Made by a program: the position numbers and the translations under genes
Part shown: positions 1,970 to 64,000 of the stretch, one piece after another
How positions within the stretch are numbered: the first letter of the stretch is position 1
Layout: the number at the start of each line of letters is the position of its first letter
The notes under the pieces: model-generated
Told to the model about the DNA's origin: nothing
Databases searched by the model: none
Seen by the model: the letters and a program-made list of their open reading frames with translations, nothing else
Source of the DNA: Verrucomicrobiota bacterium
GTDB lineage: Bacteria; Verrucomicrobiota; Verrucomicrobiia; JABWAM01
DNA length: 64,000 bases
NCBI GenBank assembly: GCA_016198745.1
Contig: JACQHZ010000291.1
Coordinates: 819 to 64,818, forward strand
Direction of reading: 5' to 3'

Positions 1970-2030
1970 GAAATCAGTCTTTAAGGCAACACTTCGCCTG
2001 GGAAATGTACCCAAACTTCGATATATAGCG

Positions 2031-2145
2031 TCTTGACAAATCGCTGAATCTCTGATACGTATCAGATGAAATTCAGGAAAATATATTCATGAATTTTCGA
2101 CAATTTTCAATCTTGACACGCGACTGATTCTTTGATACGTAGCAG
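2031..2145 (+). promoter_or_regulatory. Tandem promoter/operator elements (two 35-bp direct repeats 80 bp apart)
   Basis: Repeat 1 at 2031-2065 is TCTTGACAAATCGCTGAATCTCTGATACGTATCAG. Repeat 2 at 2111-2145 is TCTTGACACGCGACTGATTCTTTGATACGTAGCAG. Identity is 27/35. Each has TTGACA, a 17-nt spacer and TACGTA. Repeat 1 contains a perfect 14-bp palindrome CTGATACGTATCAG; repeat 2 has an imperfect copy. The region is AT-rich and lies 20-130 bp upstream of the 2164 gene. Confidence 0.45.
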
Positions 2146-2163
2146 TTTTTAAACTCAAGCCTC

Positions 2164-8173: not shown

Positions 8174-8272
8174 TGCTCTTATCTGCGAGAACTAATGGAG
8201 TGCCGCTCAAATGCCTTTCCGATGTAGCGGGTTTTACCCCCGCCCGTGGGGTGTTTTGAAGGATATTCAAAA

Positions 8273-16230: not shown

Positions 16231-16612
16231 GATGTTCGTAACTGCTCAGGTTGCCAGAGCCTGCCCCCGCGAAAGCGAGGGGTTCACCGTTCAGGGTTCA
16301 GGGTTGGTTGCGTTTCGCTGCTCATCCATCTTCAGGTAGTGATCCTGTACAACAATGTTCAAGAATCGCGCTTTTTCGATAAGAAATTTTTACCACGGAG
16401 AATACGGGGGCACGGAGAAAAATCGGCGAACTCTCAGACCAGAGGTTTCCGCCACGCGTCCGCCTGGGGCGAACGCGTGGCGAAAACTCTCCTCGGTTGG
16501 AGAAGGATGGAGGAATCTCCGTGCCTCCGCCTGCCTGTGCCGCGGCAGACAGGTGGTTCAATGTTTTTCCTCCGGATTGGGTTGTGGCTATGCCGCGCTG
16601 GGCAGTTACCGT

Positions 16613-29325: not shown

Positions 29326-29329
29326 TGTT

Positions 29330-45705: not shown

Positions 45706-47424
45706 TCAGAAATCAAGCAAGTAAGGTGAATTTCCTCCTCGACTGATATCGATAAGCCATGCTTGCAGCTCTCCGGACTTCTTAGCCGCAACGTGTCCAT
45801 CTACAAACAGAACGTTGTCGATTCCGCCGTGCCGGCCTGGAAAATAAGTATTGTAAGTGGGAAGATTTTTCAGTGTAAAGTAGCCGTAGTCCGGAGTTGT
45901 CAGATACGCCTGGTCCGCGGCCAGGACGCTTCGGCTCGAATCTGCTATTTGGGATAGCTTGGCGGGAGGGTATTGACCGGGGTTGGTCCAGGGAGGCGTC
46001 TGGCCGTTGGCCGGCCAAGCGCATGGTCCATAGAAAAGGACTCCGTAGGTGTAATACCTCAGGGACGTGACCTGTTTCGTAACAGGACAGTATAGAATGC
46101 TGGTTGGCCTGGTATAATCTGCTCCGAAAGGTTTCAGATATTCTCCAAAAAGTTTCGCGGGCACCTCGGTTCCGTTCGAGATTGGAGGAAAGGATTCGTT
46201 GTTGTCCTGAGCATACATGTTAACAACCATCCCAAGTTGCTTCAAATTGTTCATGCAGGCAATGCCCCTGGCCTGATCGCGCGCCTTTTTTAGCGCCGGA
46301 GATAATAAGGCCGCCAGAACGGCAATGATTGCGATAACGACGAGTAATTCGATAAGTGTGAATGCGGTTGCGCGGCGACCGTTTCTATTGCCGACGGCAG
46401 CGGGTTCCAACTGCGGGGTGGATTGATCGGCGGGACAGGATTGTTCAGCCCGACAAGCCGGGGTTGATTCGCGAACGATGAGGGATACCGGCAAGATGAT
46501 GTTGTCAACGTTTCCGACGGACATCAATTGCATGAGACTCGATGCGGCGCGTCGACCGATTTCCTGTTTGGGCGGGGCGATCGTCGTGAGGCGGGGTCTG
46601 ATGACGGTGGCAATGGGCATGTCGTTGAATCCGGTGATTGCCAGATCCCGAAACGGGTCAAAGCCGAGGTCGATGGTGGCGGCAATGATCCGGGCCGCCA
46701 GATCGTCACTAAAGGCGAACACGGCCAAAGGGCGTTCTCGTTGCAAGAGCACCCTGAACGTATCAACGTTCCAGTCCATCGCCCAATGTCCCTGAAACGG
46801 AAGGCCATGATCGCGCAACGCCTTCCGGTAGCCGAATGATCGAGCTTGTCCGAACGGGCCCCGCCCGCCGCCAATGTAATAGATTCGACGATAACCGCAT
46901 TGAATCAGATGCTCAACAGCCAGAAAGGCGCCGTGTACATTGTCAAACCCCACATAGGGGCCGGGAATCCCCCGGATGGGTGCGGTCACAAACACCGTAG
47001 GAATCCTTTTCTGGGATAGTTCCTGATAAAGGCTTGGCGGAAACGCATGGTGGGGCACAATCAATCCATCCACTTGTCTCTCCAACAGGACCCGCACGGC
47101 TTTCGCAAGGATGGGCGTCGATGTGGGAACCAGACGAATCAGGAGTCCATGGTCATGGTCATCCAGCACCTGCTCGATGCCCTGCAGGATGTCGGAGAAG
47201 AACGAGGCGGTTAAGGTGGGCATGATGACGCCGACCAAAAACGATTTCCCCATTCGTAGGTTGCGGCCCAAAGGATTCGGTCGATACCCCAATTCGGCAA
47301 CCTTTTTCAGGATGCGTCGTTCGGTTCGCTTGCTGATCTGCCCACGCCGGTACAATGCACGGTCAATGGTTGCCCGGGAAACCCCTAAAGTGCGAGCCAA
47401 CTGGGAGGAGCCGATATTCATCAT
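45706..47424 (-). CDS. Fusion protein: LacI-family regulator (HTH plus PBP-like domain) fused in-frame to a pseudopilin-like TM helix and DUF1559 domain
   Basis: - N-terminus: [50 protein letters not shown], a LacI HTH.
- About 280 aa of PBP type-1 pattern.
- Linker NRNGRRATA.
- Then [24 protein letters not shown] and a DUF1559 domain ending [14 protein letters not shown].
- One continuous ORF of about 572 codons, first gene of its operon. Confidence 0.75.
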
Positions 47425-48084
47425 GCGGGCACGTGCCCGTAATTTCACAGAATGACACATTGGCCAGTATTGTCAAGAGCATAGCTGAAAAAAAATTCCT
47501 CCTTACGTCCGGATTTGGGGGTGGCAAGACTTTTTTCTGGGTCGGTTTGGTCGCGCTTTTGAAGGAGCGTTGAGATTCGGTCTTGGAATTGGACATCGGG
47601 GATGAGCTTTCGGATTGGGGGTGGAACCTTTTCGATGTTGGCGTTGCCTGTCTGCCGTGCTCGGCACAGGCAGGCGACTCGATGAGTTCGCGGCGGACCA
47701 TGGCCACGTCGATTTGCGCGAAACGCGCTTCCAAGGTGGGTTGCCCGTTCAAGAGCACTTCCAGATGCTGGGGATTTTCCAGATTCTTTGCCAGGGGCGT
47801 ATCGGCGACCTGCCTGTGCGGCACGCAGACAGGTCATGGCCTGAAGCGTTCGGCTAATGCAGTGGTTGCCTGCCTGTGCGTGCCGCACGCAGACAGGCCG
47901 CTGCGGCGACGCGCGTCCGGCTCATCCAGATTCACCATCCCCGCCACGCGGATTGAGGGATCGAGCACGCGGAAGCAATTCTTGATCATCCAACTGACGC
48001 GCAACCCGTGCCCGATCACACCCAGCCGAAGCAGTTTGGATTTCATGATGCGAACTCTCCTCATTTCTGTTTCCGAAAAAACAC

Positions 48085-51000
48085 CTAACTTTTCGAACCC
48101 GGGGGCGAACCGGTCAATTCAAGAATCCAATCGATGATCCGCTGGCGCGTCTTGTCATAGTCAGCCCCCACCAGCTTGTTGCTGGCGGGAATGGCGTTCT
48201 GAATGAACATCTGGCGGACCTTTTCCAGATCGGCCGCAATTTCCGAGGCCCGTTTGGCGGCGGCGCCACCCGCCTTTTTCGCCCGGCGGATTTCCTTTTC
48301 CAGCAGATCGCAATACTTGAAGTCATCAATCCCCTCTCGCACCAGCTCCCAGCCGAGGCTGGTCACATATTGGCCGTCCATCATCGGCCAGTTCCAGAAG
48401 TAATCGCCAATCCCGTCCATCCCGTTATAGACGCTCAATACACAGCCGGGATCATGGTAATGCCACCACACCGATCCCTTGCAACGTTTGGCCCACATCA
48501 GGAAACCCGGTTCCCGACGGGAACGACCGGGAAAATGAGAGCTGTTGGGCATGTACTGCCAAAAAACGGCGCCTTCCGCCTGAATGGCGTTGCCTTCCAG
48601 TTCCGGATTGCCCACCCCCTTTACATAGCACCGGATGTCAATGCAGGACTTGAGCATTTCGATGCTATCGGTCGTGCAGGTGACAAAGGTCCGGCAATGC
48701 GGAACCGTCTTGATCAACTCGTAAATCCGTTTTGCTTTTTTACGCAGATCCAGCGCATTCGGTTCGTCCACCGCATAAAAAAGCATCTCGGGATATTCCT
48801 TGCCAGCCAACTGTTCCTTGACGTAACGGGTGCATTCCACAATGGTTTTTTCATCATCGGGAGTCAATTTGTAGTCGGGTTCCCTGATGTTGAATGGCAA
48901 AGCCGGAACCGTATATTGCCCACTGAAGAAGGGATGCGTCAGCCCGTATTTTTGGGCCAGCTTGATGCGGTCCTCAGTGATCTTGAGCGGTTTTTTCTCA
49001 CGCGCCTTGCCGACAAGATCGGGTTCCAACTGGATTTCAACGGCATTCATGCCGTGTTCCCGCATGTCGCTCAGGTGTTTTTCGGCGGCAGCCGGGTTGC
49101 CGGGCCAGGAGAAGTATTGTATCCAGGTAATCTCCGCGGGATCAGACAATTTGAACGGCAGGACCTCCAGTGTCAAAGGAACCGCCTTGCCCCCCACCGT
49201 GACCGTTCCCGAGTATTGGCCGGCTTTGGCTGAATCCGGCGCCTTGACTGTAATCCAAAGCCCGCGACATTCCCCCTTGAAAACTTCCTCCAGCGTACTC
49301 GCCGGCTTCAGAAAAATGGGTTTGATCGCATGGGCGCTTTCCTTGACGCTCTTGGCGATCTGTTTCGGGTAGGCGGTTTCCAGCAACAGGCGGTTGAACC
49401 GCGCGAGTTCCTCGTCGGTCAGCACGAGGTCCACGATATGGCGTTTCAGCAGTTCGTTCAGTTCCTGGTCAAAACCCAAACCTTCCCATGCCGATTTGTC
49501 CTCCCGGTTGTACAGCTTGTCGTTTTTAAGGACCCTTCCGTTCAACTCGCTGACCAATTTATCCTGGAGTTCCCCCTCCAGTTTCTGGCTGGGTTCCCAT
49601 TTTTGCAGGCCGGCCTGGAGATCCTCACTCAGAAGATTCCAAACCTGTTTTCCCGGCGAGGATTTCGGCGCCGCGGCATCAACCTTCAACATCTTGATCC
49701 ATCCGGGCCAATCCTCCATATCCGTTTTACTGAAGTTGGAGCCACCGGGCTTCCACTTGAAACGCATGTATCCAATGTCATAGACTGCGATGTCCTTGGC
49801 GGCCACCAGGACGCTTCCCGCCGCATCCTTCAGGTCGCTGATGGAAACCGGAATTTCCAACTGGTCCCGAAGCGGATAAACCCCCAGGAAAACGGGTTCA
49901 TACTCGCCGGGCGTGGCCCGCAGGGAAAGCGTCTTGACCCGTTCCGATTCGTCCGGCACGGTTTCGGGAAACACCGGCCCGACATACTGGCTCCCTCCCG
50001 TGCAACTGCGGGTGAAAAGCGCAAAGCCGCGCGTCGTCTCGTCCGTGTCCGGCGCCAGCGGTTTGGCCGGCGGTTCTGCGATTGACATGCGCGCCGTCCA
50101 TGGTTTGCTGGTCCGACTCTTGGCCAGAAAAATCTGCGCTTCATCCAGGTCAGCCTGCGTGATCGCCTTCAGCCGGTCAGCCGCCGGGTAAACCACCAGC
50201 GAATGGCAGATCCACCCCAGGTAAAACGAGCTGGTCTGAGGCAATGACTTGAAACGAACCCGCAACACCCCGTCCGTCACCTTCCCGCGCAGGGTGATGG
50301 GCGCGATCACGTTGTACGGCTGGGGGCACCGGATGGCAAACGGCTTGCCATCGTTGACTGAAATCTCGAAATGCGGACCACTGCTGATCAACAGCCGCAC
50401 GAAATAGTCGCCGTTGGGCGCATCCACCCGGAACGCATGGTCGGCTTCTTTGGCCGCATTCAACTTCACAAAAATAAAGTCATCGGAAAGCGCGTTGCCG
50501 CTGATCCCCCAGTCTTTTCCAAACTCCACTCCGGAAGAAAGACCCTGGACGGATTCAAAGCCGAAACCCCGTTCATGGCGGTAAAGAGTGGCCGGCGTAA
50601 CCTGGCGGTAGCCCTCGCGCACCGGGGACATCAGCCCGCCGAAATCAAACGCCGCCGTAAACTCGTAACCGCGCGGGCCGCTCTTTTCCACCGGCGGTTT
50701 CAACGTCTTGAGGTCCAGATTTTCGAGACTCACCCCGTTCACCAGCGCGACCAGCGGTCCCGGCTCATTCACCGTAAAACTGAGCGCCACCCGGTAAGGA
50801 CCATTGGTCGAGGCCACAAAATCCGATTCGAAACGCCGCCAACCCGGTTCCTGCACTGCCTCATAAACAAGAAAAAAATCGCGAGCGATCTTGCCGTTCC
50901 GCACCGGGTCCACGCTGATCAGCAACGTGCTGCCTTTGCCGATGTTGCACCATGCGGCCAGGCGGCAGGCATCACCGGTCTTGAGTTCCACATCCTGGTA

Positions 51001-51441
51001 GAGTGTTACGTGCTGTTCGGTCTCCACCCGCAAAGCCGGTTTGCTCTTGGATTCCGCGGGCAGATCATTCGTTTCAACTGAAATCACCACGGGTTTTCCA
51101 GCCTTGAAACTTTCCACCGCCCAACCCCCCGGTATTCGCAACTGAACATTTGTGGTCGCGGGGTCCGGGTTGATCGTCTCCCATCCTCCCGCAAAATCCC
51201 CGTTCTTCAAAAGCGATCCCTCCGCCCGGACTTCGCTGAAAACCCCGAGGACAAGTAAAATTACGTTAAATATTCGGATGATTTGAGTTGCTTGCAAAAT
51301 TCTGTGGAGGCGCTTCTGTGAAGCGCCGTCTAGCGGAAGTCTGCGCTTCACAGAAGCGCAGCTACATTTTGCGGCGGAGTTTTGCAAGAGGCTCATTTGT
51401 TTCATGTTCTTTTTCCTTCCTGATTTTGAAGTTTTTATCAT
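48085..51441 (-). CDS. Large secreted hypothetical protein (about 1100 aa), candidate CAZyme
   Basis: Uninterrupted ORF. A hydrophobic signal-like segment IIRIFNVILLVLGVFSEVRAEG lies about 50 codons into the table ORF. The true start is uncertain and may be TTG near 51297; see the inverted repeat at 51310-51359. No catalytic motif recognised. Confidence 0.6.
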   Translation of the reverse strand: MIKTSKSGRKKNMKQMSLLQNSAAKCSCASVKRRLPLDGASQKRLHRILQATQIIRIFNVILLVLGVFSEVRAEGSLLKNGDFAGGWETINPDPATTNVQLRIPGGWAVESFKAGKPVVISVETNDLPAESKSKPALRVETEQHVTLYQDVELKTGDACRLAAWCNIGKGSTLLISVDPVRNGKIARDFFLVYEAVQEPGWRRFESDFVASTNGPYRVALSFTVNEPGPLVALVNGVSLENLDLKTLKPPVEKSGPRGYEFTAAFDFGGLMSPVREGYRQVTPATLYRHERGFGFESVQGLSSGVEFGKDWGISGNALSDDFIFVKLNAAKEADHAFRVDAPNGDYFVRLLISSGPHFEISVNDGKPFAIRCPQPYNVIAPITLRGKVTDGVLRVRFKSLPQTSSFYLGWICHSLVVYPAADRLKAITQADLDEAQIFLAKSRTSKPWTARMSIAEPPAKPLAPDTDETTRGFALFTRSCTGGSQYVGPVFPETVPDESERVKTLSLRATPGEYEPVFLGVYPLRDQLEIPVSISDLKDAAGSVLVAAKDIAVYDIGYMRFKWKPGGSNFSKTDMEDWPGWIKMLKVDAAAPKSSPGKQVWNLLSEDLQAGLQKWEPSQKLEGELQDKLVSELNGRVLKNDKLYNREDKSAWEGLGFDQELNELLKRHIVDLVLTDEELARFNRLLLETAYPKQIAKSVKESAHAIKPIFLKPASTLEEVFKGECRGLWITVKAPDSAKAGQYSGTVTVGGKAVPLTLEVLPFKLSDPAEITWIQYFSWPGNPAAAEKHLSDMREHGMNAVEIQLEPDLVGKAREKKPLKITEDRIKLAQKYGLTHPFFSGQYTVPALPFNIREPDYKLTPDDEKTIVECTRYVKEQLAGKEYPEMLFYAVDEPNALDLRKKAKRIYELIKTVPHCRTFVTCTTDSIEMLKSCIDIRCYVKGVGNPELEGNAIQAEGAVFWQYMPNSSHFPGRSRREPGFLMWAKRCKGSVWWHYHDPGCVLSVYNGMDGIGDYFWNWPMMDGQYVTSLGWELVREGIDDFKYCDLLEKEIRRAKKAGGAAAKRASEIAADLEKVRQMFIQNAIPASNKLVGADYDKTRQRIIDWILELTGSPPGSKS
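51310..51359. terminator. Perfect 17-bp inverted repeat (GCGCTTCTGTGAAGCGC, 16-nt loop, GCGCTTCACAGAAGCGC); stem-loop, possible terminator/attenuator
   Basis: Seen directly in the sequence. It lies about 100 nt downstream of the stop of gene 51461..55401 on the minus strand. A weak U-run (AAUUUUG) begins 9 nt after the stem on the minus-strand RNA. Confidence 0.35.
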
Positions 51442-51460: not shown

Positions 51461-54400
51461 TCAGTTATTTTTAACCTCCGGCTGATAGAACTGGATAGAG
51501 TTAAACGAACCTTTCAGGCGGACGGCTTTATACCATCCCCCGGGAAACGCGATAAACCGTGGTCCTTCCAATTCCCCCTCGTGCATGGTCTGTTGGGGCA
51601 GGGCTTGCCACGTGAAACCGTCCGGGGAAACCTCGATCGTGTAGGAATGGGGATAGACACGAAAATCGTTGGTCATGTTTTCGATCCGGAAGGCCGGCGT
51701 GACGGCCACACCCGTCAAGTCCCGCGGTTCGGGGAACAAGATGGTCACCGGCTCATTGTCGGCGGGAAACCGGACATATTCATTGGTGTCGTAAACCACG
51801 CAGGCAACCGATGACCAGAAGTCATCGCAACCGGCCACACCCGTCTGGTTCTGAATCCCGCGCGCCAGGAGGGTGGTTCCATCCGGCGCCACATAGACTC
51901 CATCGCTGATGATCCGTCCTCCCTTCAAATCCAGCGGGGCGCCCACCGGCTTGGCTCCTTCCAGCAGGCCGATGGGACGGAAATCTCCACCACCTCCCTT
52001 GTCCTTTTCGGTGGGATCGACGCCCGTCATCGCCAACAGGATGGGCGATGCGAACCGCTTGATGAAAGGCGCCGTGAAGATGACCTTGACGATTTTCTTG
52101 TCCGGCTTGGGGTTGACCCATTCCGAAAAGTAAAGGAAGGCCGTTACGCCGGCCATGGTCTCCCCCTGCCAGGCCATGGTACCAGCCTTCATGGTTTTTA
52201 TGCCCCTGGGAGAATAATCCCATTTGGTGGGCAATCCATCCCAGTTGGCAATATTGATGTTGTACTTGATCTCCTCCTTGGCAAAGGTGTTGTCCTCGTA
52301 AACCATGAGATAATAGCCGGCCAGTTCCGCCCTGCGGACGTAATTTTGTCCCGGTCGTTCACTGAGCGTATGGAGAAAGAGCAGACTGGCTGCCTTGCGG
52401 TTGACCGGAATCTCCACCCGCGCGGGCAGGGTCCGGTCCACCAGACCAGGGTTTTGCACCATCACGCAACCGCGTCCCTTGTTTTGGCTTTCGTCAATGA
52501 TTTCAAAGGGGATGCCGCTGAAGTTGCGCTTGCCGGACATGAGGGCGCGCAAATCCATCTCTCGTCCCAAACCGAGCCAGCCGCCCTTTTCAACTCCCGG
52601 ATCCTCATCCTGGCGGCTGAGGTTTGCCGTAGATTGCAGGTCCACCGTAAAAAATTCCTTGGGACCCAACCGTCGACCAGGCAGGGCGATGTTATCAACC
52701 ATCTCGCGCACCAGCGGCAGACAGGCATCCTGAGCCGCGTCAAATTCAGGCGTTCCATTGACCATTTTGGATGGCGACCAGCCCATTTGAGCGGCGCCAG
52801 CGGCAATGGCCAGGTCAAATGGACCGTCGGAAAAGTTCATATAGTAGCCGCTCCAGGCCGGCGACTTGGCGTTCTCCGCCGACGGCATATTGCCGCGGAA
52901 TAATAAGAGGGGATATTTCAGCTTCTTGAGCCGATCAACCACCTCGTCATGCCAGACGTAGATGACCAAACGTTCAAAGAAGTTTTCCTTGGCCAGCAGT
53001 TCGGCCGCCTGGCGCCAGTCGTTTTGTTTGTCATCGGCATGGCTGATGCCCGCCACCCAGAAGGGGGAATCGTTCATGATGATGCGCTTGTTCCTGGCCG
53101 CCAGGTGGTCGCCAATTTTTTTCAAGGTTTCCACCCACAACTCCTGCCCGGCGAGCTTGCGGGCGCGACACCGTTCGCAGACATTCCATCGCGAACCATT
53201 ACCCAACTGCTGCATCTCGTCGCAGTTGATGTTGACCAAGTCGGAATTGCAATGCGCGGAGGCAGTGTCCAATACCTCAAAGTAACTTTTCCAGACCTCG
53301 GGATGGGATGGACAGGGGTTCTGCCGCCCGACACCGAGCTTGTCCAGCATTTCATCCGGCAGTCGTTCCACAAATTTTTCGGGATCAGGATTCCAGGCCC
53401 AGTTGAACTGAACACCGGGCGTCAGCTTGATAAAATACCGGTCCGCCATCGGCACAATGCCTTTGGCATATTCATCGAATTTACGGGCCGACTCCATGTT
53501 GACCAGGCCGATAAAGTTGTCGAAGTAGTTGTACTTGAGCCGCGCTAACGCCCGCACGAGCGATGGGTTCAGGCGCCGGTTGGCGACGATGTAACGGTAG
53601 GTTTTTTCCGGCCAATCCCGCACCTTGAAGCAAGGCACCGTCCATCCGCCATCGCGCCAGGCAACCGATTGCAAAAGACTCATGCACCCGTAAAATGTTC
53701 CCGCCGGGTCCCGGCCGGTGACCGTGACCCCGTCCTTTCCGACTTCGAGGACATAGCCTTCCAGTTTGTCCAGGGTGGCAGAATTTTCCTTCAATTCGAT
53801 GGCCGGCCCCGCTTTGGATTCCGCGATGGCGGCCTCAATGCCAAAACTGAGTTTGAGTTCCTCCTTGAGGACTTCCGCGGTGGCGCGCATTCGTGGTGAG
53901 GCATTGGCGGGGATGACAATGGAGACGTTCTTTCCCATTGGAAAGGCGCCCTTCTGCCGTTCAATTTCCTGCGGCACCGGAAAGATTCGCGGATCGAAAA
54001 CTTCCGGCAGCGCAATTTCCTTGGGATCGTTGTTGACGATTTTCCCCTGGTTCTGGCGGTAGGCTGTTTTGGTCGGGGTTTCCCCCCTCTTGAGCGGCCG
54101 CCCCCAAATCCGCGTCTCGCTCAGCCCCAAATATCCCCCACCGGTGAACGTGACATTGGCGCGAATCCAGCGCGCACTGGTATTCATGTCGCTGAATTCA
54201 GCCAGGGGTGCGGGATGGTATCCTTGTTGGTCAAACGTCACCAGGTCCTGGACCGTGTGAGTCATGACGTAGCGGCCGCCCGGGGATTTCAGATAGAGCG
54301 CGGCATTGGCCAGAGCGGGAGTGCCGGATAGCAGTTCGACCTTGTCGATGGCATATTCCATTCCCAAATCAAACACGATGTCATATCCGTTGTTTCCAAG

Positions 54401-55401
54401 CTGAAATATCGGCCAGCCCGCGGTGGGTCCCAGAATTCCATCCGTCAGGATGCCCTCCGTGAAGGAGATCCATCCCCCCACCCGCATCCCTTCCGCAAGA
54501 TTACGGTCCTCGAACGACAGGTAATACGGAAAATGAGCGGCAGTCGTGCCGGGTTCGTTGTACGTGTAGCGTCCACCGACCGATGCGTTCAGTTTCTCCA
54601 GCGAAGCGGGGGCATTTCCCGTCAGACAAAAGGTGCCTTCCTTGACCTTGTAAGAAGCCGCAATTTTGGATTGATCCACAACGTCAAAAATCAGTTCTCC
54701 CACGCTGATCACGTCGTCAAATCCGCCTCCGCTGGTGGTCCAACTGGAGAGTTCCGTGGCGCTTTTATGGCCATAATTTGAGCGCGCCAGGCGGATGGCC
54801 CACACATCCCCCCGCGCAGGAGTTTTCTGGTCCAGAGCGGCAAAGGGAATTTTGACTTCCACGATCCAGCCCCAATCATATTTCTTGCCGACCGCTTCCC
54901 AGTCCGCTTTGGGATTCCATTTTCGTCCTTGCCCCGCCATCATCCCGTCGTAACGGGAACCGGCGAGGTTGGCAACGAACTGGAACCATTCCTCGTTCTT
55001 CCAACTGTGTTGGGGTGAGAAATGAAACTCTGCGCAATCGCTCTGCCAAACGTCGTCGGTATCCTTGCCACAGGCGCCACCCAGCATGTCGCGATCTTCG
55101 GCGGCAAAAGCGAAATAAAGCGCCTCATCCGTGTAAACCACATAAGCCAGCATCTGTTCTTTCGTCGGGCGCGTCGTATTCGCCACCAGGTAGGGACCCG
55201 CGGGAGCGGCTTTGGACCAGCTTTCGTCATGAAGCGCGCCATCCAGGGCCGGCGCCTTTTCCACCCGCGGCGCGACAATGCGCCAAGGGCCCTTGCCGCC
55301 CGAACGCACAAAATCCTTCGTGCTCACATCCAACCCCTTCAGATGCCCCGCTGCCAGGATACCCATTCCCAACATGTAAACCCATCGGTTTATTTTAGTC
55401 A
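51461..55401 (-). CDS. Giant secreted GH20-like multidomain protein (CBM9-like N-terminus, GH20b-like domain, barrel, F5/8-type-C/discoidin-like C-terminal domains)
   Basis: Start MTKINRWVYMLGMGILAAG at 55401; the upstream 175 codons of the table ORF are junk. The GH20b-like motif is GYVLEVGKDGVTVTGRDPAGTFYGCMSLLQ. Where GH20 has H-x-GGDE, this protein has NCDEM. The C-terminus shows a discoidin-like pattern. Confidence 0.5.
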
Positions 55402-55410
55402 TAAAACACT

Positions 55411-56265
55411 TTACCGACTCGGAACGTTCGTGAGCAGAACAATTCCGATGGCAAGCAACAGGCCCATCATCTGCCGTTTGAGCAAGGACTCCTTCCACAG
55501 CAGCCGCGAGGCGAACACGTTCAGGCAAATCTCCAGACTCGCGAGCGTCGGATAGAACACCACGGCGGGGATGCGCGCCAGGCAGATCAGCACGAGCAGA
55601 AGCATGGAGGCGTTGACGAAGCCGATCGCGCCGCCGAGAGCGACGTCGCCCTTGGAATACTCGACGCGGCGGGCGAATGCGTAACTCAACGACGAAAGCG
55701 TCGCGAACGTGAACAAAAGCGTCATGTAAGTCTCGCGTTGCCCTACCGTGAAATGTATCTGGGCATACTTGTGGAGCGTCAGGATCGTACCCGCCATGGC
55801 GAAGCAGGTGAACAACACCAAATCGCCTCTCACGGTCACACGCGGATGCGATGACTCGCGCCGCCGCATCAGAATCATCGAGACGGGCACGAGCGCCAGC
55901 GCCACCCAGCGGTAAGGCGTCATGGTTTCGCCCCACGCAAGCCATGAGACCAGGACGGGCACGACGGTTCCCGCGCGGGACAGCGCCGCGGTGATTCCCA
56001 CGCCCACGATGCGGTAGGCGGCCAGAATGACGAGGATGTGCGCGAAGTAGAGAATGCCGTTCACGCCCGCGACCGCGATTACGTGCCCATCCAGCAACCG
56101 GCTCGGGCTAAGCCCGTGCGACAAGAAAATCATCAAGGAAGCACCGGCGGCGATGAGGTAGTTCACCACGATGGCGGCGAGAATGTTTGTGCCGTGCTTT
56201 TGCCCGTAGCGCAAGCACTGGTTGAAGCACACGCTGCCGACGACGGCGAGAAGCAGGAAGATCAT
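55411..56265 (-). CDS. EamA/DMT-superfamily transporter (10 TM)
   Basis: 284 aa, hydrophobic throughout, with two EamA-like halves. Confidence 0.75.
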   Translation of the reverse strand: MIFLLLAVVGSVCFNQCLRYGQKHGTNILAAIVVNYLIAAGASLMIFLSHGLSPSRLLDGHVIAVAGVNGILYFAHILVILAAYRIVGVGITAALSRAGTVVPVLVSWLAWGETMTPYRWVALALVPVSMILMRRRESSHPRVTVRGDLVLFTCFAMAGTILTLHKYAQIHFTVGQRETYMTLLFTFATLSSLSYAFARRVEYSKGDVALGGAIGFVNASMLLLVLICLARIPAVVFYPTLASLEICLNVFASRLLWKESLLKRQMMGLLLAIGIVLLTNVPSR

Positions 56266-56395
56266 GTCGGATGCTCGGCGTGGTCAGCCGCGCTTCTCAC
56301 GGGCGCGGCGGAGGTCGTCGAAAACCTGTTTCCACACCTTCTCGTCGTTTGAAAGAATGGCGCATCCATCCTGTTGAATAAACCGGGCGGGATTT

Positions 56396-59300
56396 TCATT
56401 TCGGTTTCTGTCGCTGGAACGGGAGAACAACTCCCGCCTTCCATTTCGGCTCGAAAAATTCATCGGGCGTGGCCGCGAAATAGGGCGACAGACCGCTGCC
56501 AAAAAAACTCCCGCCGTCCATGCGTTTGGGGATGGTCAGGATTTGTCCCTCTTGCATGCCATATTCAAACCGCCAAAGTGCGGCGGCAGGTTGGGATGGC
56601 AGGGGAACGTCCACCGTGCCGGCGCCTTTGGGCCAGCAGGCGTTGATGGGGATGACGGTCCCCTTGCCGCCCAGCTCCACAAGGCGGTTGGAACGCCCGC
56701 TGATCCACTCACCCAGCGGCCGGGACAAGGTCAACTCCGCAGCCGCCCCGTCTCCCCGCGTTTGAAAAACAAAGCTGCGGGCCAGAGGCTGCCAGCTATA
56801 GGGTTGGCGGGGCAATTCATAAACCACCTTGGCCAGGTTATGCTGAATCACATAGTGAAGGGCCTCGCGGGGCCACCCCGACTGGGGCGTCTTGCCGGGC
56901 CGTTTGCCGGATTCCCGGCACACCAGCGTGTACACGCCAGTTTTGCCGTCCGGTTTAACCTCCAGCTTGCCGCTCAAGCTTTTCTCGTAACTCAAATCAA
57001 TCTGCGCGCACACCTGGCCGTCGGGATCGTACAACGCGTAAGGTCCACCGTAGTAAGAGGCGATCTCAATCGAAACCGGCTGATCGTGCGTCTTCAAAAA
57101 ACAAATGTGGTGATCCTGCGGAATGGTGACCAGCAACCCTTTTTTATGGGTTGGCAGATTGGAATCCAGGAAGTCGCGCGGCGCTTTCATGAAAACACCG
57201 AGAAAACGCGGAAGGGTTTGCACCGTCCATTTCCCGCCTGTGTCCAGCGCCTCGGGCGCAGCCCACTTGTAGAGCGAGTTCATCACCACGTTGCGCCCCA
57301 CCCGCAGGTAGGCCGTGTCGCCCGTCAACAGAAAACCCATGGCGTAAGGGTTGAGCGAACCGGATTGAGTGCCGCCCTTGGTGAAGCCAAGCCCCCGTTC
57401 CATGTGTCTCCGGCAGAATTTCAGGAGGACCTCGCGGATCCGGGCATCGCCCGTCAACTGGTAATAGTCCCAGAGCCCTTCAAAGACCCAGCCGGCGTGG
57501 TACATCAAATATCCCGCCTGCTCTTCCAGGCTGTCGCGGGAGATATCACAATCCCGGAAAGATTCCGCCACCCGGTCGGCGCGCGCCTTCCAGCGCGGGT
57601 CCCATGTCGCCTGGTAAAGCAGGGTCCAGCGTTGAAGGAGGCCGCCGAGGTTGCGTCGGGCGTTGCCGTAAGCCTCCTCCTTTTCCAGGTTGCGGTAGTA
57701 TTGCCCGTTGGGGTCCACCTCGAGTTGGTTGTTCTCGTAACACTCCGTCATTTCCGCCCACATCAGCAGGGCATCCAGCATGCGCCGTTCACCGGTCATC
57801 CAATAAAGGTAGATGGCGTCCTCTTTGCCGGTCAACGTATCGCCAAACTCGCTTCCCCCAAACCAGCCGATCTCGCTGTTGTTGTAATGATAAGTGCCGC
57901 CGCGAAAATCTTTGGTGACGGAATGGTCGTGATAACAAATTCCGCGATCGAAGGAATAACCAGTGTATTCCTGCGCGTATTTCAGGTAACGCCGCAGCCC
58001 CGTCCGGTAATACATGGAAGGAGCGTAGGTGGACCAGCCATAATGCGACTTGGGCCGGGCGCGATACCATAGGCCGCCGTCCCGCCCGCAAAACGGCGCT
58101 TCATGGTAGCCGCCGAATTCAAAGAAACCGTAAATGCAATCCTGCTCCCGTTCCGCCAGGCGCAGGTCCAGGATGGTGGCCAGGTAGGCTTCCTCATCCC
58201 GGAAGTTTTTGACATCGTATGGATGCGCTTCCCGAAGCAACGCGCCGGTGCCGCACGCCCACGCCGGATCCACCACGGCCAGCACCGGTTGCGCGATGTT
58301 GCGCACGCGATCATGGATTGCATACAATTCCTCCGCGCGAAACATGAGCCAGATTTCGTGGGTCTTGGCGATGCCCGAACGGTTGACGGTACGGCACCAT
58401 TTGATCAATTCCGCCGGTGTCGCGTTGCCGACCGCCGCCGCCTTCCCGATTAATTTGTCCAATTTCTGTTCCTCGCTGAGATAGTACCATATACCGTCGA
58501 AGGAAAGATCCAGCAACCGCCCGTGCCGGGGCCACAAATGGAAACTGGCCACAGGACCGTTTGCCTCCGCCTCAAACGGGTTCTGTTGCCAGGCATCCCG
58601 GACCGCCAGACAAACCGCCGCCGACCCCGCGCGGGCCTGGACCCAGCCCGCGTTTTTCTCTCCACGGTAATAGATCGCCTTCTTGTCCAAATCCTTCAAG
58701 GTCCACTCGATAAGGTGGCCATCTGGCCGGTCGCAAACCAGCGACCAATGCACCCGGCTGGAAAAATCCATCACCTCGCTGATTCTTTCATATTCCTCGC
58801 CGCCAAACGCGCCGCTCACTGCCTCGGGTTTCTCACCCGCAGCCAGGGGGATGACCACGGCAAGGTCGCGCACGCGATCCTTCAGCGATTCGCCCGTGAA
58901 AATAAAGGTATGCTCCATTTTAATGTCGGGCTGGTTCCGGTAAAAATGGAGCCGCACCTGGTAGCGGCCAAATTTTTCACCCTTTTCGTTGGCGTACCAA
59001 CCCGACGCCTTGAGAGTTGCGCGCCACGGCCCGTTTTCCTCCAACGCCACCGTGGCGGAACGGTCATGGATGGCCAGGAAAACCCCGCGCTTTTCGTGTT
59101 CAACCAGCAAGCCATAGGGTTTGGACGGATCGATTTGTTTTTGACCCCCCACCGTCAGGTTCCGCCATGGATCAAACTGTTTTTTCAGACAGGTCGTTTT
59201 TAAAACACCGGTATCAATTATAAACCCATCGTCCTTTTCGGTCACTAACGGCGGCAAAGCGGACGGCTCTTTTTTTAATTCGCCGCCAAAAACCAGCCGA

Positions 59301-59614
59301 TGCGGACGGCTGTCCTTCGCTTGAAAATCCAGCAAAATCCAGCGGGCGCCCTCACGACCGTCAGCATCCCATGTGGCATGCACCCGGGTCTGGACGGGAA
59401 CCGACTGACCATCCGCATCGAGCAATCCCACCGGCGCATCAATCTTCAGCGTTCCCTTGGGGAAAGGCACCCCGACCGTACAGGGCGCCGGCCAGGCGCG
59501 CGGCGGCGCCGTGACATCGATCCGGATGAGAATTTCCCCGGCATCGCAGGTCCATGCTGCGAAAATCCAGACAACCAGGCGGGTCAATGAATGGACAAAC
59601 GGATGTGGTTTCAT
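56396..59614 (-). CDS. Large secreted hypothetical protein (about 1070 aa), candidate CAZyme
   Basis: Start MKPHPFVHSLTRLVVWIFAAWTCDA at 59614 gives a signal peptide. The remainder is a continuous protein-like ORF with no recognised family motif. Confidence 0.6.
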   Translation of the reverse strand: MKPHPFVHSLTRLVVWIFAAWTCDAGEILIRIDVTAPPRAWPAPCTVGVPFPKGTLKIDAPVGLLDADGQSVPVQTRVHATWDADGREGARWILLDFQAKDSRPHRLVFGGELKKEPSALPPLVTEKDDGFIIDTGVLKTTCLKKQFDPWRNLTVGGQKQIDPSKPYGLLVEHEKRGVFLAIHDRSATVALEENGPWRATLKASGWYANEKGEKFGRYQVRLHFYRNQPDIKMEHTFIFTGESLKDRVRDLAVVIPLAAGEKPEAVSGAFGGEEYERISEVMDFSSRVHWSLVCDRPDGHLIEWTLKDLDKKAIYYRGEKNAGWVQARAGSAAVCLAVRDAWQQNPFEAEANGPVASFHLWPRHGRLLDLSFDGIWYYLSEEQKLDKLIGKAAAVGNATPAELIKWCRTVNRSGIAKTHEIWLMFRAEELYAIHDRVRNIAQPVLAVVDPAWACGTGALLREAHPYDVKNFRDEEAYLATILDLRLAEREQDCIYGFFEFGGYHEAPFCGRDGGLWYRARPKSHYGWSTYAPSMYYRTGLRRYLKYAQEYTGYSFDRGICYHDHSVTKDFRGGTYHYNNSEIGWFGGSEFGDTLTGKEDAIYLYWMTGERRMLDALLMWAEMTECYENNQLEVDPNGQYYRNLEKEEAYGNARRNLGGLLQRWTLLYQATWDPRWKARADRVAESFRDCDISRDSLEEQAGYLMYHAGWVFEGLWDYYQLTGDARIREVLLKFCRRHMERGLGFTKGGTQSGSLNPYAMGFLLTGDTAYLRVGRNVVMNSLYKWAAPEALDTGGKWTVQTLPRFLGVFMKAPRDFLDSNLPTHKKGLLVTIPQDHHICFLKTHDQPVSIEIASYYGGPYALYDPDGQVCAQIDLSYEKSLSGKLEVKPDGKTGVYTLVCRESGKRPGKTPQSGWPREALHYVIQHNLAKVVYELPRQPYSWQPLARSFVFQTRGDGAAAELTLSRPLGEWISGRSNRLVELGGKGTVIPINACWPKGAGTVDVPLPSQPAAALWRFEYGMQEGQILTIPKRMDGGSFFGSGLSPYFAATPDEFFEPKWKAGVVLPFQRQKPK

Positions 59615-59630
59615 AATTCCTTTCGATTTT

Positions 59631-61067
59631 TCATTGTAATTCAGATGGAATGGATAAATGGGCCGGTTTGACGCTCCAGGTTTGCCAGCGGGTGAATTCT
59701 TCGATGTTTCCGAAGTCCAGCGCGGGATCAAACACGCGCCACGCTTTCAGACCATGCGCCGCCTGCGCCCATTCACCGGCGAACGCGGGATAAGGATGGC
59801 GGGGTTTCGAGGTCCAGCGAGAGCCGGCCCGCCCGCCACGCGCGTCATCATAGACCTCGGCTAACAGTCCCAAGGCGCCAGATAGTGTCACCTCCGTTTC
59901 CGCAACGGACAAGTGAGCCGGCAGAGATCCGGTTGTTCGCACGTGACGGACCAACTGAGCGGCCAGGTTTTTCACATCATCCCATGAAAAGGCGCCCTTT
60001 GCCGTCGCGTCACTTTTGCGGATGACGGTTGGACCGATCACCGGGGTTTTCCTGATCTCCAGCGGCCAGCGGCCACTCTGTCCATAGCCCGTTACCGCTT
60101 CTGCCAGGGCGGTCAACAACTCGGCAGGACTGAACCAGGGATCAAGCGGCACGTCTTCGCTTTCCCGGACACGGCGGGCGTATTGGGCAAGATGATCGGC
60201 CGTCACGCGCTGAGCTTGGCATCCAAAAATAACGGCCAGGTCGCCCAGGCCGCAGATCGAGACCGTCCCGCTTGCCTGGGCCAACGCGGCAACCAACCGC
60301 TCCAAATTGCGGCGGATGCGTTCCCGTTCGGCAAGCGGCCGCGGCATCAGCGGCTGCGGTTCCGGACGATTGAATCCCCCGTAATGATTCTTGCACGAAA
60401 ATTCGCTGGAAAGCAGGTGGTGCGGATGCGCCCCGAAAAGCGCCGTGAATTCCCATTTCTGGGCGGTTTCCTCCAGGAGGGAAGGCAGACGAACGAGCCG
60501 GGTATTGAATGCTTCGTCATGGGCGTAATCTTCCTCGAAATAACCCGGTCCATCTCCACTTTCGGTTACGATCAGGTCCAGAATACTGAAAACAAGATTG
60601 CCGCAAAACCAAAAGACCCGATGTTCCGGCAACTGAAACGGGGCGCCGTAATAAACCTTGCCGCATCTTGATATGGCCTGAATGATTTGGGGGGCGTAGG
60701 ACCCGCCATGGCGCGTGAGCGCCGCGCATTTTCCAAAGATGCGTTCGATGTCCCGGAAACCGGTCTCTTCTTCTTGCAGGGTGATTCGCACCCCTGCTTC
60801 CCAATCCGCCGCCGCCACCTGCTCGACGGTTGCAGGATGGACTGAGCCGCGATTGAAGTGGCTGGAAACGTCGTGGCGCGACACGGCCCGGATCACGTCC
60901 CGACGCCCCCGCCGCTCCAGGCGCCGGGCCTTGTCCCCGATGACATGGAAGGATCCCTTGACCTGGTAACGGCTGAGCAGATCGGCAATCCAAAGAACAA
61001 TGTCATCGCTGCCAAACGCCGGCGGTGAAAAGGAATCCTCGGTATCGAAATAGAGAAGAGAATGCAC
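59631..61067 (-). CDS. Hypothetical protein with weak NodB/CE4-like polysaccharide deacetylase resemblance
   Basis: 478 aa. The N-terminal YFDTEDSF and downstream His-containing segments loosely resemble CE4 motifs. Assignment is weak. Confidence 0.35.
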   Translation of the reverse strand: MHSLLYFDTEDSFSPPAFGSDDIVLWIADLLSRYQVKGSFHVIGDKARRLERRGRRDVIRAVSRHDVSSHFNRGSVHPATVEQVAAADWEAGVRITLQEEETGFRDIERIFGKCAALTRHGGSYAPQIIQAISRCGKVYYGAPFQLPEHRVFWFCGNLVFSILDLIVTESGDGPGYFEEDYAHDEAFNTRLVRLPSLLEETAQKWEFTALFGAHPHHLLSSEFSCKNHYGGFNRPEPQPLMPRPLAERERIRRNLERLVAALAQASGTVSICGLGDLAVIFGCQAQRVTADHLAQYARRVRESEDVPLDPWFSPAELLTALAEAVTGYGQSGRWPLEIRKTPVIGPTVIRKSDATAKGAFSWDDVKNLAAQLVRHVRTTGSLPAHLSVAETEVTLSGALGLLAEVYDDARGGRAGSRWTSKPRHPYPAFAGEWAQAAHGLKAWRVFDPALDFGNIEEFTRWQTWSVKPAHLSIPSELQ

Positions 61068-61111
61068 AGCGGGACCCCAATTTATCCAAAAGGGAAACGG
61101 ACATGTTGTTG

Positions 61112-61873
61112 TTACTGGTTGTCAAACCAGGCAGGGTTATGGCCTTGGATGAGGTCATAACTGTGCCAACTGACGTGAAGATCCACCCAAAGCACGTTGC
61201 TTCCTCCGTGGTGCCTTCTGCCCGGTTCCTGGCTCGGCAAAGGACCGTTTCCAAAACAGACGTAATCCGCACTGCCATCACCATCGGAATCGAGGCACAC
61301 GACCGTCTCGGCGGGCTGGGCAATATTACTGAGAGGTTTGATCCCAAAGTATGCCGTGCTCGCATAGTTGTAGCTGTAACTGAGTCTGTTTAGCGACCAC
61401 TGTTGTGTCGGCGGTCCTGCGGGACAAAAAAACACATTGGTGGCCACATAATTTGTCAGGCTATTGTACCAATAATCACAAGCTGGAAAGTAATCGTTGT
61501 TGTCATCAGCATACATGCGATACGCAAATCCAATCTGCCGCAGATCATTCATGCAAGCAGCCGATTTGGCGGACCCGCGGGCATTTTTCAAGGCGGGCAA
61601 CAAGAGACTGGCCAGGATGGAAATGATGGCGATGACGACCAGAAGCTCGATGAGCGTGAAGGCATGGGATGATGGAATGATGGAATGATGGAGTGGTGTG
61701 GGACGATGGTTGTTCCGTCTTTCAACCCTTCCCATTACTCCAGCGTTCCAGCATTTCATTGTTCCATGCGTTTGCATCGTGAATCGTTCGCCACGTCGAA
61801 TCCGTCCTTTGGCGGATGTATCGTTCAGGTTGGAATACCGATTACTTATCACTGATAACTGGTTTCTGATCAC
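61112..61873 (-). CDS. Prepilin-type N-terminal domain plus DUF1559 (H-X9-DG) pseudopilin-like protein, translationally coupled to the upstream regulator
   Basis: Contains [25 protein letters not shown] and the C-terminal [12 protein letters not shown]. Its start overlaps the regulator stop (ATGA at 61870-61873). Confidence 0.8.
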
Positions 61874-63054
61874 TGGTCACTGATATGGAGTAATTCGTTT
61901 TCCTCCGGACGCGTGGTCTCCCCGCCAATCCACGGCGTGGAAAAAATGCGGCCGGCAACGGATGATGTTCCGTTTCCTCTTCTTTCCAACCGTTGGCAAA
62001 TCATGTCCACCGCCGCCTCCCCGATCTTATCCAAGGGTTGAACCGTCCGTGTCAAACACGGGTGATGGCTGTGGGACAGATCGATTCCGCTGCCGCCCAC
62101 CACGCTCATCTCGACGGGAATCCGAATCCCTTTTTCGCGCGCGGCGCGCGCCACTCCTAATGCCAAAAGATCCCCCATGCACAGGACCGCGTCAGGTATT
62201 TCTCCTCCACGAGATAGAATGTCCTGCATGGCGCTGTAACCGTCTTCCTCGGAATAGGATTTCGCCCTCGCGATTTTGAAACGGACCTCCTCATTCAAGA
62301 GTTCGTCGCCAAGTCCCGTTTCCACGCCAAACCGTCGCAAACGACTGGAAACGGATTTCTGAATGGAAACTCCCAGCAAGAGAAGGATGCGTCGCCGTCC
62401 CGTTTGCCTCCAAACCTCAGCGATCCGTCGGCTGGACTCAAAGTAGTCCGGGGACACAAAATTGGCGGTGGCGCCGTCAGCAGGGGGATTGATATCCACC
62501 ACCGGCTTTCCATGACGCTCGTAAATCGGCCGGATTTCGTCGCTGACCCACACTGGAAAGAGAATGATCCCGTCCACGCGGGAGCAATCATCCACCAAAC
62601 TCTGCACGAGGGAATCGCATCCCCGGTTCTCGCACGACCGGGGCACCAGCATCAGCGGCGGAAAACGCTTGGCGGCCGCCTGCAGGATGCCGCTATTCAA
62701 ACCCGATAAAAAGGGGAGATTCATAGCTGGTCCGGAAATGGGAATGCCGAGCGCAATTCGCCATTCCGCGGCGCGAGAACCATTCGCTCCCATAAAAAAG
62801 GTCCCCCGTCCCACTTCACAACGAATCCGCCCCTGCTGGGCCAGCTTGTCAAACACTCCTTGGACGGTCCGCTCGCAGACACGAAGCCGATGGGACAGTT
62901 GTCGAATGGTGGGAAGCCGCGTCCCCATCGGCAGTTCAGGCCGCAGGAATTCAGTCTCCAGACAGTTGAGCACCCGTTCCCCCGCTCGTAAAGAAGCCAT
63001 ATCCGCCTTCAATAATCGGCCGGCTTTTTTGCGGTTTGAAAATGGATTTTCCAT
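61870..63054 (-). CDS. Transcriptional regulator, GntR-type HTH plus LacI-type PBP-like domain
   Basis: The HTH is [41 protein letters not shown]. The C-terminal 260 aa match the PBP type-1 pattern. An AT-rich promoter lies at 63055-63170. Confidence 0.75.
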
Positions 63055-63605
63055 GGTGATTTCGAAAGGTTAAAGCAACTTTATACATCTCTTATGCGTC
63101 AATAATAGATCAATATTACTATAATGCAAGTTTAATTTGCCGCGCTCAAAGTCGTCTCAAGGTTCATGAAAGGATCTCCCGCCGAATCTGCTTCCCGGGT
63201 TGCAACCTCTTGAATATTCTGCGAACCTCCGACGGGGACCGGTTCTTCGGATACCCCGCCGGACAATTTGTTATCCCCGGCAAATACGGCTTCTTCATTT
63301 CATCCTCCTTTTTCAAGAAGGGGAGGATCCTCAGCCAGGGACGGCTGGGCCACATGGTTTCATTAGTCTCATCTTGATAGTGAAAGCGAACTATGGTCAC
63401 AATAGACAGTTGGCCCCTTGGCGATCAAGAGCTTATGGGGGCTTGAGAGTTCGTTATTACCGCAGCTATACAAAATCCAGCCGCCTTTTGTGCGAATACC
63501 TGAGGCCCATTGAAACCCATCAAATTGGTCCGTCTGGCCCAGGACTGCAGTGGCTACGCCACATTTCAGAGCCATAACCAGAAAGTTCTCGCCACGCCGC
63601 ACGGA

Positions 63606-64000
63606 ATGCTCTTGAGCTACCTCGTCGACTACGATGGCAACACGGGCACGTGCCGCTGGAATTTGGCCCGCAGTCAAGACGGAGGGGATTCCTTCGACAC
63701 GGTTTACGAATCACCGGTTCGCGTGGGCAACAAGCCGCCTTGCCTGGAGATCGATGAAGCAGGCCGCCTGTTGGCGTTTTGCGAAAATGGCCGCAACGGA
63801 TCGAATGAAATGATGTTCTTCCGCTTTCGAGCCTTTACCGAACCGGATTGTTTTGAGGTCGGACCGAGTCATTACGGCAACCATCGGAGGGTGCCGCGAC
63901 ATCACGCCGGAAGGCTACGTGCTCGGCACGTTTACCGCACAAAATGGGAGCCGCGGGGACCCATATTTTTTCAAAATCAGTGTTGTCAGGGGGTGCGAAA
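63606..64000 (+). CDS. BNR/Asp-box sialidase-like protein, 5' partial (runs off the window end)
   Basis: The frame is open from 63504 to the window end. The first ATG is at 63606; TTG 63510 is an alternative start. An Asp-box ARSQDGGDSF is present. It is divergent from the regulator promoter. Confidence 0.45.
   Translation, partial: MLLSYLVDYDGNTGTCRWNLARSQDGGDSFDTVYESPVRVGNKPPCLEIDEAGRLLAFCENGRNGSNEMMFFRFRAFTEPDCFEVGPSHYGNHRRVPRHHAGRLRARHVYRTKWEPRGPIFFQNQCCQGVR

Follow-up and report, generated by a model that had tools for sequence, protein, structure and literature searches.

Why would the gene of a pilin-like protein lie directly behind that of a sugar-type repressor, at the head of a set of genes for glycan-degrading enzymes? 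The question is raised by a 64,000-nucleotide (nt) stretch of a metagenome-assembled Verrucomicrobiota genome (assembly GCA_016198745.1, the 81,429-bp contig JACQHZ010000291.1, positions 819 to 64,818; hereafter the window), near the end of which a regulator gene and a prepilin gene follow each other (Table 1). The initial annotation had presented this pair as the unfused version of two regulator-pilin fusions encoded elsewhere in the window, translationally coupled and bound by a conserved functional partnership. Its description of the locus holds in part: the two open reading frames (ORFs) are adjacent on the minus strand, carry the expected domains and are followed by glycan enzyme genes, with the reserve that the DUF1559 domain of the pilin stays under the Pfam cut-off and is named by homology only. 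Our preferred reading, held with middling confidence, is that an AraR-type repressor and an operon-specific PulG-like pseudopilin are co-transcribed at the head of an operon resembling a polysaccharide utilisation locus, and that fusions of the two are tolerated through the cut made by prepilin peptidase.

The regulator (MBI4026343.1 in GenBank, 376 amino acids (aa) from ATG 63000) combines two domains. Its GntR helix-turn-helix (HTH) matches PF00392 with 25.8 bits (E 8.6e-6), slightly below the Pfam cut-off of 27, and PF00392 is found in the precomputed annotation of all its close homologues. The effector domain matches PF13377 (Peripla_BP_3) with 64.6 bits and PF00532 (Peripla_BP_1) with 45.3 bits and is of the GalR/LacI type. 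Within the GntR regulators, the AraR subfamily is defined by a GntR HTH together with an effector domain of the GalR/LacI type, and its members repress sugar and polysaccharide utilisation genes (PMC4494728). The protein has the chimeric build of Bacillus subtilis AraR, a GntR winged HTH followed by a GalR/LacI sugar-binding domain, but it is only distantly similar to AraR in sequence: among proteins in the PDB, LacI, PurR and CcpA match at E 1e-15 and AraR (3tb6) only weakly, at E 1e-4. It belongs instead to a verrucomicrobial clade, represented by 26 homologues (32-51% identity, 372-409 aa), all unfused. It also departs from the AraR subfamily in that its gene is overlapped by the longest ORF of a prepilin gene and that, in paralogous architectures, the regulator is fused to one. 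Near the pair, just one stretch resembles a promoter, a weak candidate upstream of the regulator (Table 1). A scan of 60900-63400 for the sigma-70 consensus gave no promoter match anywhere, the spacer between the two genes included, and terminators at chance level; a search for inverted repeats that might serve as operators, around the regulator as well as within the spacer, yielded nothing useful, and comparison by eye of the regions upstream of 16 homologous regulators disclosed no common operator motif.

The second gene (MBI4026342.1, 207 aa from ATG 61735, the start chosen by the Prokaryotic Genome Annotation Pipeline, PGAP) encodes a prepilin. PF07963 (N_methyl) and TIGR02532 score 31 and 28.9 bits, above their cut-offs of 21.2 and 16.3. 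A prepilin peptidase site A|F is predicted between 61661 and 61660 (...SSHA|F), followed by E+5; the residue at -1 is Ala and not Gly, as in most relatives. PF07596 (DUF1559) reaches 17.8 bits, below its cut-off of 23.3, and TIGR04294 (HX9DG) does not match, but the homologues of the pilin are PF07596-bearing DUF1559 proteins (E 1e-20 to 1e-39). With the DUF1559/H-X9-DG paralogues of Planctomycetota, Verrucomicrobiota and Lentisphaerota it has in common the N-terminus, a pair of Cys residues and, near the C-terminus, the RHxGGxNxLFxDGH motif (C61, C104, H175, N180, D185, H187); it differs from them in its short mature form (182 aa), its sub-threshold Pfam score and D-L in place of D-G in the motif, a substitution also found in P0186. 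In the structure model the protein adopts a type IV pilin fold, with a long alpha-1 helix on a head of antiparallel beta-sheet. TIGR01710, the GspG equivalog model, scores 36.1 bits against a cut-off of 88.85 over the N-terminal 58 residues alone, which sets the protein apart from GspG. Unlike the pseudopilins of type II secretion systems (GspG/PulG/EpsG) and type IV pilins, its gene lies outside any gsp or pil operon, beside a regulator and glycan enzymes; the protein has Ala at -1 and a head with an HX9DG-type C-terminal motif specific to the Planctomycetota-Verrucomicrobiota-Chlamydiota (PVC) group, and it is one of many paralogues, each tied to a glycan operon. These pilin genes appear modular: leader and N-terminal helix may be near-identical while the heads are about 35% identical, and the reverse (the window compared with the loci L146 and L003; P0296 compared with P0010). 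This suggests recombination among the many paralogues at a conserved 13-residue segment.

How the pilin is translated depends on where it starts. The ATGA overlap first reported at 61870-61873 is not there: these positions read tcac on the plus strand, hence GTGA on the coding strand, and the regulator stop overlaps the pilin only in its longest ORF. The pilin frame is indeed open for 71 codons back to this GTGA and offers five in-frame starts, GTG 61873, GTG 61852, ATG 61777, ATG 61759 and ATG 61735; leaders would be 71 aa long from GTG 61873, 33 or 39 aa from the first two ATGs and 25 aa from ATG 61735, as compared with 7 to about 55 aa annotated in homologues. An orthologous pair, L003, lies on a metagenomic contig of the Joint Genome Institute; its mature pilin is 92% identical. 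There the intergenic sequence is unrelated to that of the window and contains other heptamer arrays; even so, the reading frame of the pilin once more extends without a stop back to the end of the regulator gene. The sole canonical in-frame start between the regulator stop and F+1 is the ATG of a true ATGA overlap, with the ribosome-binding site GGAGGA 5 nt upstream. Since this is the only start available in L003, translational coupling, as put forward in the initial annotation, appears well supported in the orthologue, and it is plausible in the window, where the literal ATGA is missing. Comparison with L003 gave ratios of nonsynonymous to synonymous substitutions (dN/dS) of 0.082 for the pilin (182 codons, dS 0.56) and 0.091 for the C-terminus of the regulator (dS 0.62). 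Both genes are thus functional and under purifying selection, and the pair has been kept together over a dS of about 0.6.

The 134-nt interval that precedes the PGAP start is built of 7-8-nt tandem repeats, with heptamers over the regulator stop and two mutually inverted octamer arrays (Tandem Repeats Finder, TRF). The inverted arrays form a predicted hairpin of -40.7 kcal/mol (z -3.9; none of 200 shuffled sequences folded as stably), the 3' arm of which encodes the 12 residues directly before FTLIELL. A leader of this hairpin type occurs in at least 11 homologous pilins. An Rfam scan of 60000-64000 at E<=1 found no match at the repeats or the hairpin. In a scan of a genome collection, an exact 18-mer of the leader (CCATCATTCCATCATTCC) was present in more than 118 stretches from Bacteroidota, Desulfobacterota, the PVC group, Calditrichota and others, and none of these matches adjoins a pilin; among 109 such stretches, 34 have at least three TGGAA within 160 nt upstream and none has them downstream, and 41 fold with z < -3. 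The inverted octamer arrays may thus belong to a widespread, undescribed repeat-hairpin element. Tandem heptamers (CAGTGAT, GGGTTCA, CGGTTCA, GCATTCG) also fill intergenic and leader DNA of this lineage (61840-61885 and 16280-16305 in the window; L003:355-385 and 455-490), where they resemble cyanobacterial STRR (short tandemly repeated repetitive) sequences.

Such a leader could be taken to mean that the pilin gene is decaying or phase-variable, with a lost start, a degenerate motif and frame-switching repeats. The presumed ancestral ATG is CTG, the HX9DG motif reads D-L for D-G, the DUF1559 score is under threshold and the repeat units of 7-8 nt are not multiples of 3. We find this highly improbable: a dN/dS of 0.082 over the whole mature protein speaks against decay, the D-L variant recurs in P0186, the repeats number just 3-6 copies, and perfect CAGTGAT units give TGA in every frame, so that slippage cannot simply fuse the ORFs. 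For the latter reason we also rejected slippage in the heptamer array as a way of fusing the regulator and pilin frames.

The fusions themselves are real, as the initial annotation had it: both those at 38278 and at 45706 are uninterrupted ORFs deposited as single GenBank proteins (MBI4026330.1 and MBI4026335.1), and the linker of the LacI fusion contains neither ATG nor GTG. We compared a profile of nine fusions with 1.84 billion representative proteins and judged the best 150 hits together with earlier hits. This gave at least 38 distinct regulator-prepilin fusions of 547-700 aa, from several phyla; named sources include Verrucomicrobia, Omnitrophota and Capsulimonadaceae (Armatimonadota). 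Many of their linkers are 12-35 aa long and free of Met, non-ATG starts being beyond what a protein sequence can tell. Proteins such as P0014, P0015 and P0058 join a GntR HTH, a periplasmic binding protein (PBP)-type domain, N_methyl and DUF1559 in a single protein, the very architecture that the pair at 61112-63054 has in two, which supports the pair as an unfused counterpart of the fusions. The unfused state also looks ancestral for this regulator family, as first suggested, because all 26 regulator homologues are unfused. An unfused orthologue of the LacI regulator exists as well (L004, 76% identical), but its stretch is not long enough to tell if a pilin comes next. We left P0033, apparently a degraded fusion, out of the evidence. 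Fusions, too, head glycan operons, as in L147 (DUF4838, two URO-D genes, GH65) and L153 (Laminin_G_3). A literature search found no description of a regulator-prepilin fusion or coupling.

Cleavage of type IV pilins requires a small residue at -1, normally Gly, and E+5 is important for their assembly. All 38 fusions have F+1 and E+5, and 36 have Gly or Ala at -1 (Ser in P0298, Lys in P0421); the GntR-FCD fusion of the window, which is not among the 38, has Ser at this position. The conservation of -1 and E+5 suggests that the fusions are still processed by prepilin peptidase. We had considered Ala or Ser at -1 as a sign of uncleaved fusions, an idea rejected because stand-alone relatives also carry Ala. 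An AlphaFold2 model of the LacI fusion comprises a confident repressor module, a disordered linker (aa 338-363) with A366|F367 at its end, then the pilin helix and head. Orthologous fused regulator halves are 89%, 56% and 51% identical, and their pilin heads just 33-37%. P0070 joins a URO-D enzyme to a pilin of this kind; fusion is therefore not specific to regulators. Given this, the type IV pilin fold of the model and the F+1 and E+5 kept in the pilin and the 38 fusions, the initial view that these proteins have no structural role in a pilus or secretion system is not supported.

Based on these data, we propose that the regulator, the pilin and the enzymes would form one transcription unit starting upstream of the regulator, and that a sugar set free when the target glycan is broken down would lift repression, as the family membership of the regulator suggests. 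In this lineage, the pilin would be translated by coupling to the regulator stop codon, for which L003 provides the basis; in the window, coupling would be possible via the GTGA overlap, with three downstream ATGs competing. The prepilin would enter the inner membrane in N-in orientation, prepilin peptidase would cut it after Ala-1, and the mature protein would serve as a pseudopilin subunit for secretion of the enzymes of the operon or capture of their glycan. The fusions at 38278 and 45706, like the at least 38 found elsewhere, would be the same gene pair minus the regulator stop codon. With the junction of the fusions falling precisely on the prepilin cleavage site, the fused regulator could act as an oversized leader peptide that is freed into the cytoplasm. 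Fused, overlapping and separate forms would therefore be functionally equivalent, and fusions could arise repeatedly and persist. The adjacency of the two genes would then reflect the tight packing of operon heads rather than a dedicated signalling pair.

Several points weigh against this scheme. The GTGA overlap requires GTG 61873 as a start, which has no Shine-Dalgarno sequence and implies a 71-aa leader, and with the PGAP start 134 nt separate the two genes, a spacer that could carry a promoter of a type outside the coverage of our scan. The paralogue L146, 37% identical in the mature pilin, has a leader of about 170 nt in common with the window (about 87% identity) that begins exactly at its own ATG (MND...); this ATG, used by homologues, is CTG in the window. 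L146 has a promoter of its own (TTGACA-17-TAGATT), a palindrome with 10-nt arms and no regulator upstream, where a glycerate kinase gene is found; pilins of this type can therefore be independently transcribed. We know of no precedent for a prepilin peptidase cutting a "leader" of 250-400 aa. Finally, the function of DUF1559 is called unknown in the literature (PMC10632474, PMC2754498), and a role in secretion or capture is hypothetical.

Some of these points are what would be expected if regulator and pilin were ordinary neighbours, that is, separate transcription and translation units, the pilin being made from ATG 61735 under a promoter or operator of its own within the repeat-rich spacer and the open frame being an accident of stop-poor repeats. 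PGAP chose that start, the 7-8-nt repeats are of a kind found in the intergenic DNA of many phyla, 68 open codons would be expected by chance in an estimated 5-10% of cases, L146 has its own promoter and palindrome, and in the homologous locus L137 regulator and pilin lie roughly 150 nt apart. We regard this as possible though on the unlikely side, given that L003 has no start except the ATGA-overlapping ATG, that the frame is open to the regulator stop in both orthologues despite unrelated intervening sequence, that the spacer contains no promoter-like match, and that ATG 61735 is buried in the -40.7 kcal/mol hairpin with a GGAG just 2 nt upstream.

The region upstream of the pilin gene of L146 (L146:480-740) contains, on the opposite strand, a fragment coding for the N-terminus of a pilin, besides an element of about 140 nt with inverted repeats on either side (ctagtgtagtgtccc...gggacactacact). 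These may be remains of a pilin-gene rearrangement, or else a small mobile element.

Is the association of regulator and pilin itself conserved? Within the window, three of the four pilins are attached to three of the four regulators, and at least three pilins directly preceded by a regulator would be found with P = 0.003 if 33 genes, 4 regulators and 4 pilins among them, were ordered at random. The claim that every multi-gene glycan operon here is led by a pilin is inexact: the fourth regulator (8246-9394), remotely similar to the one studied here and set in the same gene order as in the locus L001, precedes a BNR_2 gene without any pilin, and the operon studied here starts with its regulator. 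Beyond the window the association is rarer. Among 18 distinct homologous regulator loci with enough downstream DNA for judgement, a pilin follows directly in two (L003 and L137, the latter with the gap mentioned above), N_methyl genes occur about 1.9 kb downstream in three, and the other 13 have none. In L001, where the regulator is 51% identical and the order of regulator, PcRGLX and CBM9/GH20b genes is the same, the pilin lies in a divergent cluster; it is accompanied there by a 465-aa gene (L001:1605-3002), the product of which is 56% identical to the 478-aa protein encoded directly downstream of the pilin in the window. A sampled pilin locus, L150, has no regulator nearby. Thus, a conserved regulator-pilin partnership is not supported. 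The most conserved neighbour of the pilin is this 478-aa protein, predicted to be cytoplasmic and without a family match.

These counts bear on a second alternative, a sharper form of the initial idea, according to which the two proteins form a signalling pair: the periplasmic DUF1559 domain would sense either the glycan or the pseudopilus state, and so control the regulator, by membrane tethering or regulated release through prepilin peptidase in the fusions and by protein-protein contact in the unfused pair, as in circuits of the ToxR/CadC or PilA-PilS type. Fusion does recur in several phyla and is kept across orthologous regulators, the N-in topology of prepilins puts the regulator in the cytoplasm, the attachment of three of four pilins in the window exceeds chance, and the Pfam name of DUF1559, SBP_bac_10, denotes a putative solute-binding family. 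We nonetheless judge it decidedly unlikely. The three regulator types concerned (GntR-FCD, LacI-PBP and GntR-PBP) are unrelated and each has a cytoplasmic effector domain of its own; an adjacent pilin is found in just 2 of 18 homologous loci; a metabolic enzyme, URO-D, is fused in the same way; pilin heads are swapped freely even at 89% regulator identity, a poor fit to a co-evolved sensor-regulator interface; and E+5 and -1 are conserved as expected for pilins that are cleaved and assembled. A precedent is the PilA-PilS-PilR system of Pseudomonas, in which the regulator reads the inner-membrane pilin pool and pilin levels are autoregulated; that system differs from the present one in using a two-component kinase and not a one-component repressor, and in having neither a gene fusion nor a link to glycan operons.

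A further reading is conceivable. As the leader of a prepilin, the repressor would stay tethered to the membrane until prepilin peptidase frees it, in the fusions and by extension in coupled pairs, and transcription of each glycan operon would depend on how fast its own pseudopilin is fed into the machinery for secretion or capture. We put this forward tentatively and regard it as unlikely. The fusions, as modelled and given the established topology of prepilins, resemble bitopic membrane HTH proteins (ToxR, CadC, TcpP, RodZ) and transcription factors released from a membrane tether in having an N-terminal module for DNA binding in the cytoplasm and a C-terminal domain in the periplasm, with a single membrane helix between them. 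They differ from these proteins in that they carry a complete LacI or GntR repressor with its own effector domain, and in that they span the membrane with a prepilin helix, the cytoplasmic end of which bears a peptidase site. To our knowledge, no characterised protein combines a repressor with a prepilin helix.

The features discussed above are listed in Table 1 with the remaining genes of the operon. N-terminal signal peptides are visible in two of the three operon enzymes, the PcRGLX-like and the GH123-like proteins, as read from their N-termini. Between the PcRGLX-like and the CBM9/GH20b genes, 450 nt (55946-56395) have no assigned gene.

Table 1. Coordinates of the regulator-pilin pair, its operon and related features of the window.
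Feature	Position	Strand	Basis and remarks
AraR-type transcription regulator	61870-63054	minus	longest ORF 394 aa; GntR winged HTH aa 27-86, LacI/GalR-type sugar-binding domain aa ~110-370
PulG-like/DUF1559-HX9DG-family prepilin-type pseudopilin	61112-61873	minus	253 aa as longest ORF; mature protein 182 aa
AT-rich region, TTGCAT-16 nt-TATTAT	63070-63135	minus	upstream of regulator; only promoter-like stretch near pair, weak
Heptamer array CAGTGAT x6.4 (coding strand)	61840-61885	minus	TRF; holds regulator TGA 61870-61872 and overlapping GTG 61871-61873
Long imperfect hairpin, (xTGGAAxx)n-loop-(xxTTCCAx)n	61662-61769	minus	TRF and RNA fold; encloses ATG 61759 and ATG 61735
478-aa protein, conserved downstream neighbour of pilin	59631-61067	minus	no Pfam/NCBIfam match, no signal peptide
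PcRGLX/GH127-like	56396-59731	minus	Pfam; visible N-terminal signal peptide
CBM9+GH20b	51461-55945	minus	Pfam
GH123-like	48085-51441	minus	Pfam; visible N-terminal signal peptide
Fusion LacI+PBP+N_methyl+DUF1559	45706-47460		uninterrupted ORF; single GenBank protein
Fusion GntR+FCD+N_methyl+DUF1559	38278-39681		uninterrupted ORF; single GenBank protein
Fourth regulator, GntR HTH + Peripla_BP_3, 382 aa	8246-9394	plus	BNR_2 and GH20 genes next, no pilin

Other gene types recur around these pilins. The stand-alone pilin at 2164 has a URO-D-like gene (1205-1969) in front of it, and URO-D-like genes, possibly of the MtaA/CmuA type, accompany pilin-led glycan operons (1205-3033 and 27916-29415 in the window; L147:10878-12982; fused in P0070). 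A methyltransferase of the MTTB family is encoded in the next operon. Together, the URO-D-like and MTTB genes may serve corrinoid-dependent demethylation of methylated sugars. Laminin_G_3 proteins (ConA-like lectin/glucanase) repeatedly adjoin a pilin or a fusion (34957-38250 in the window; L146:1789-2889; L153:4826-6547; L001:3800-4681).

DUF1559-type prepilins are the largest paralogue family in many Planctomycetota, Verrucomicrobiota and Lentisphaerota, phyla whose breakdown of complex glycans does not rely on the SusC/D system known from Bacteroidota. Planctomycetes have 68-74 DUF1559 copies (PMC10632474, PMC2754498), a verrucomicrobium has a PulG-like pseudopilin with 67 paralogues, one of them in an alginate-induced gene cluster (pgaptmp_000046-60; PMC13274419), and planctomycete pili-like fibres bind dextran (PMC5394234). 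The position of these genes at operon heads, overlapped by or fused to the repressor of the operon and with the cleavage site at the junction, suggests that the pilins are operon components, each dedicated to a single glycan operon. If the repressor is indeed held at the membrane as a prepilin leader, the fusions of the PVC group and neighbouring phyla would be one-component regulators of a novel kind, set free by proteolysis. The question of whether the fusions are cleaved could thus give a first handle on the regulation and role of the DUF1559 family.

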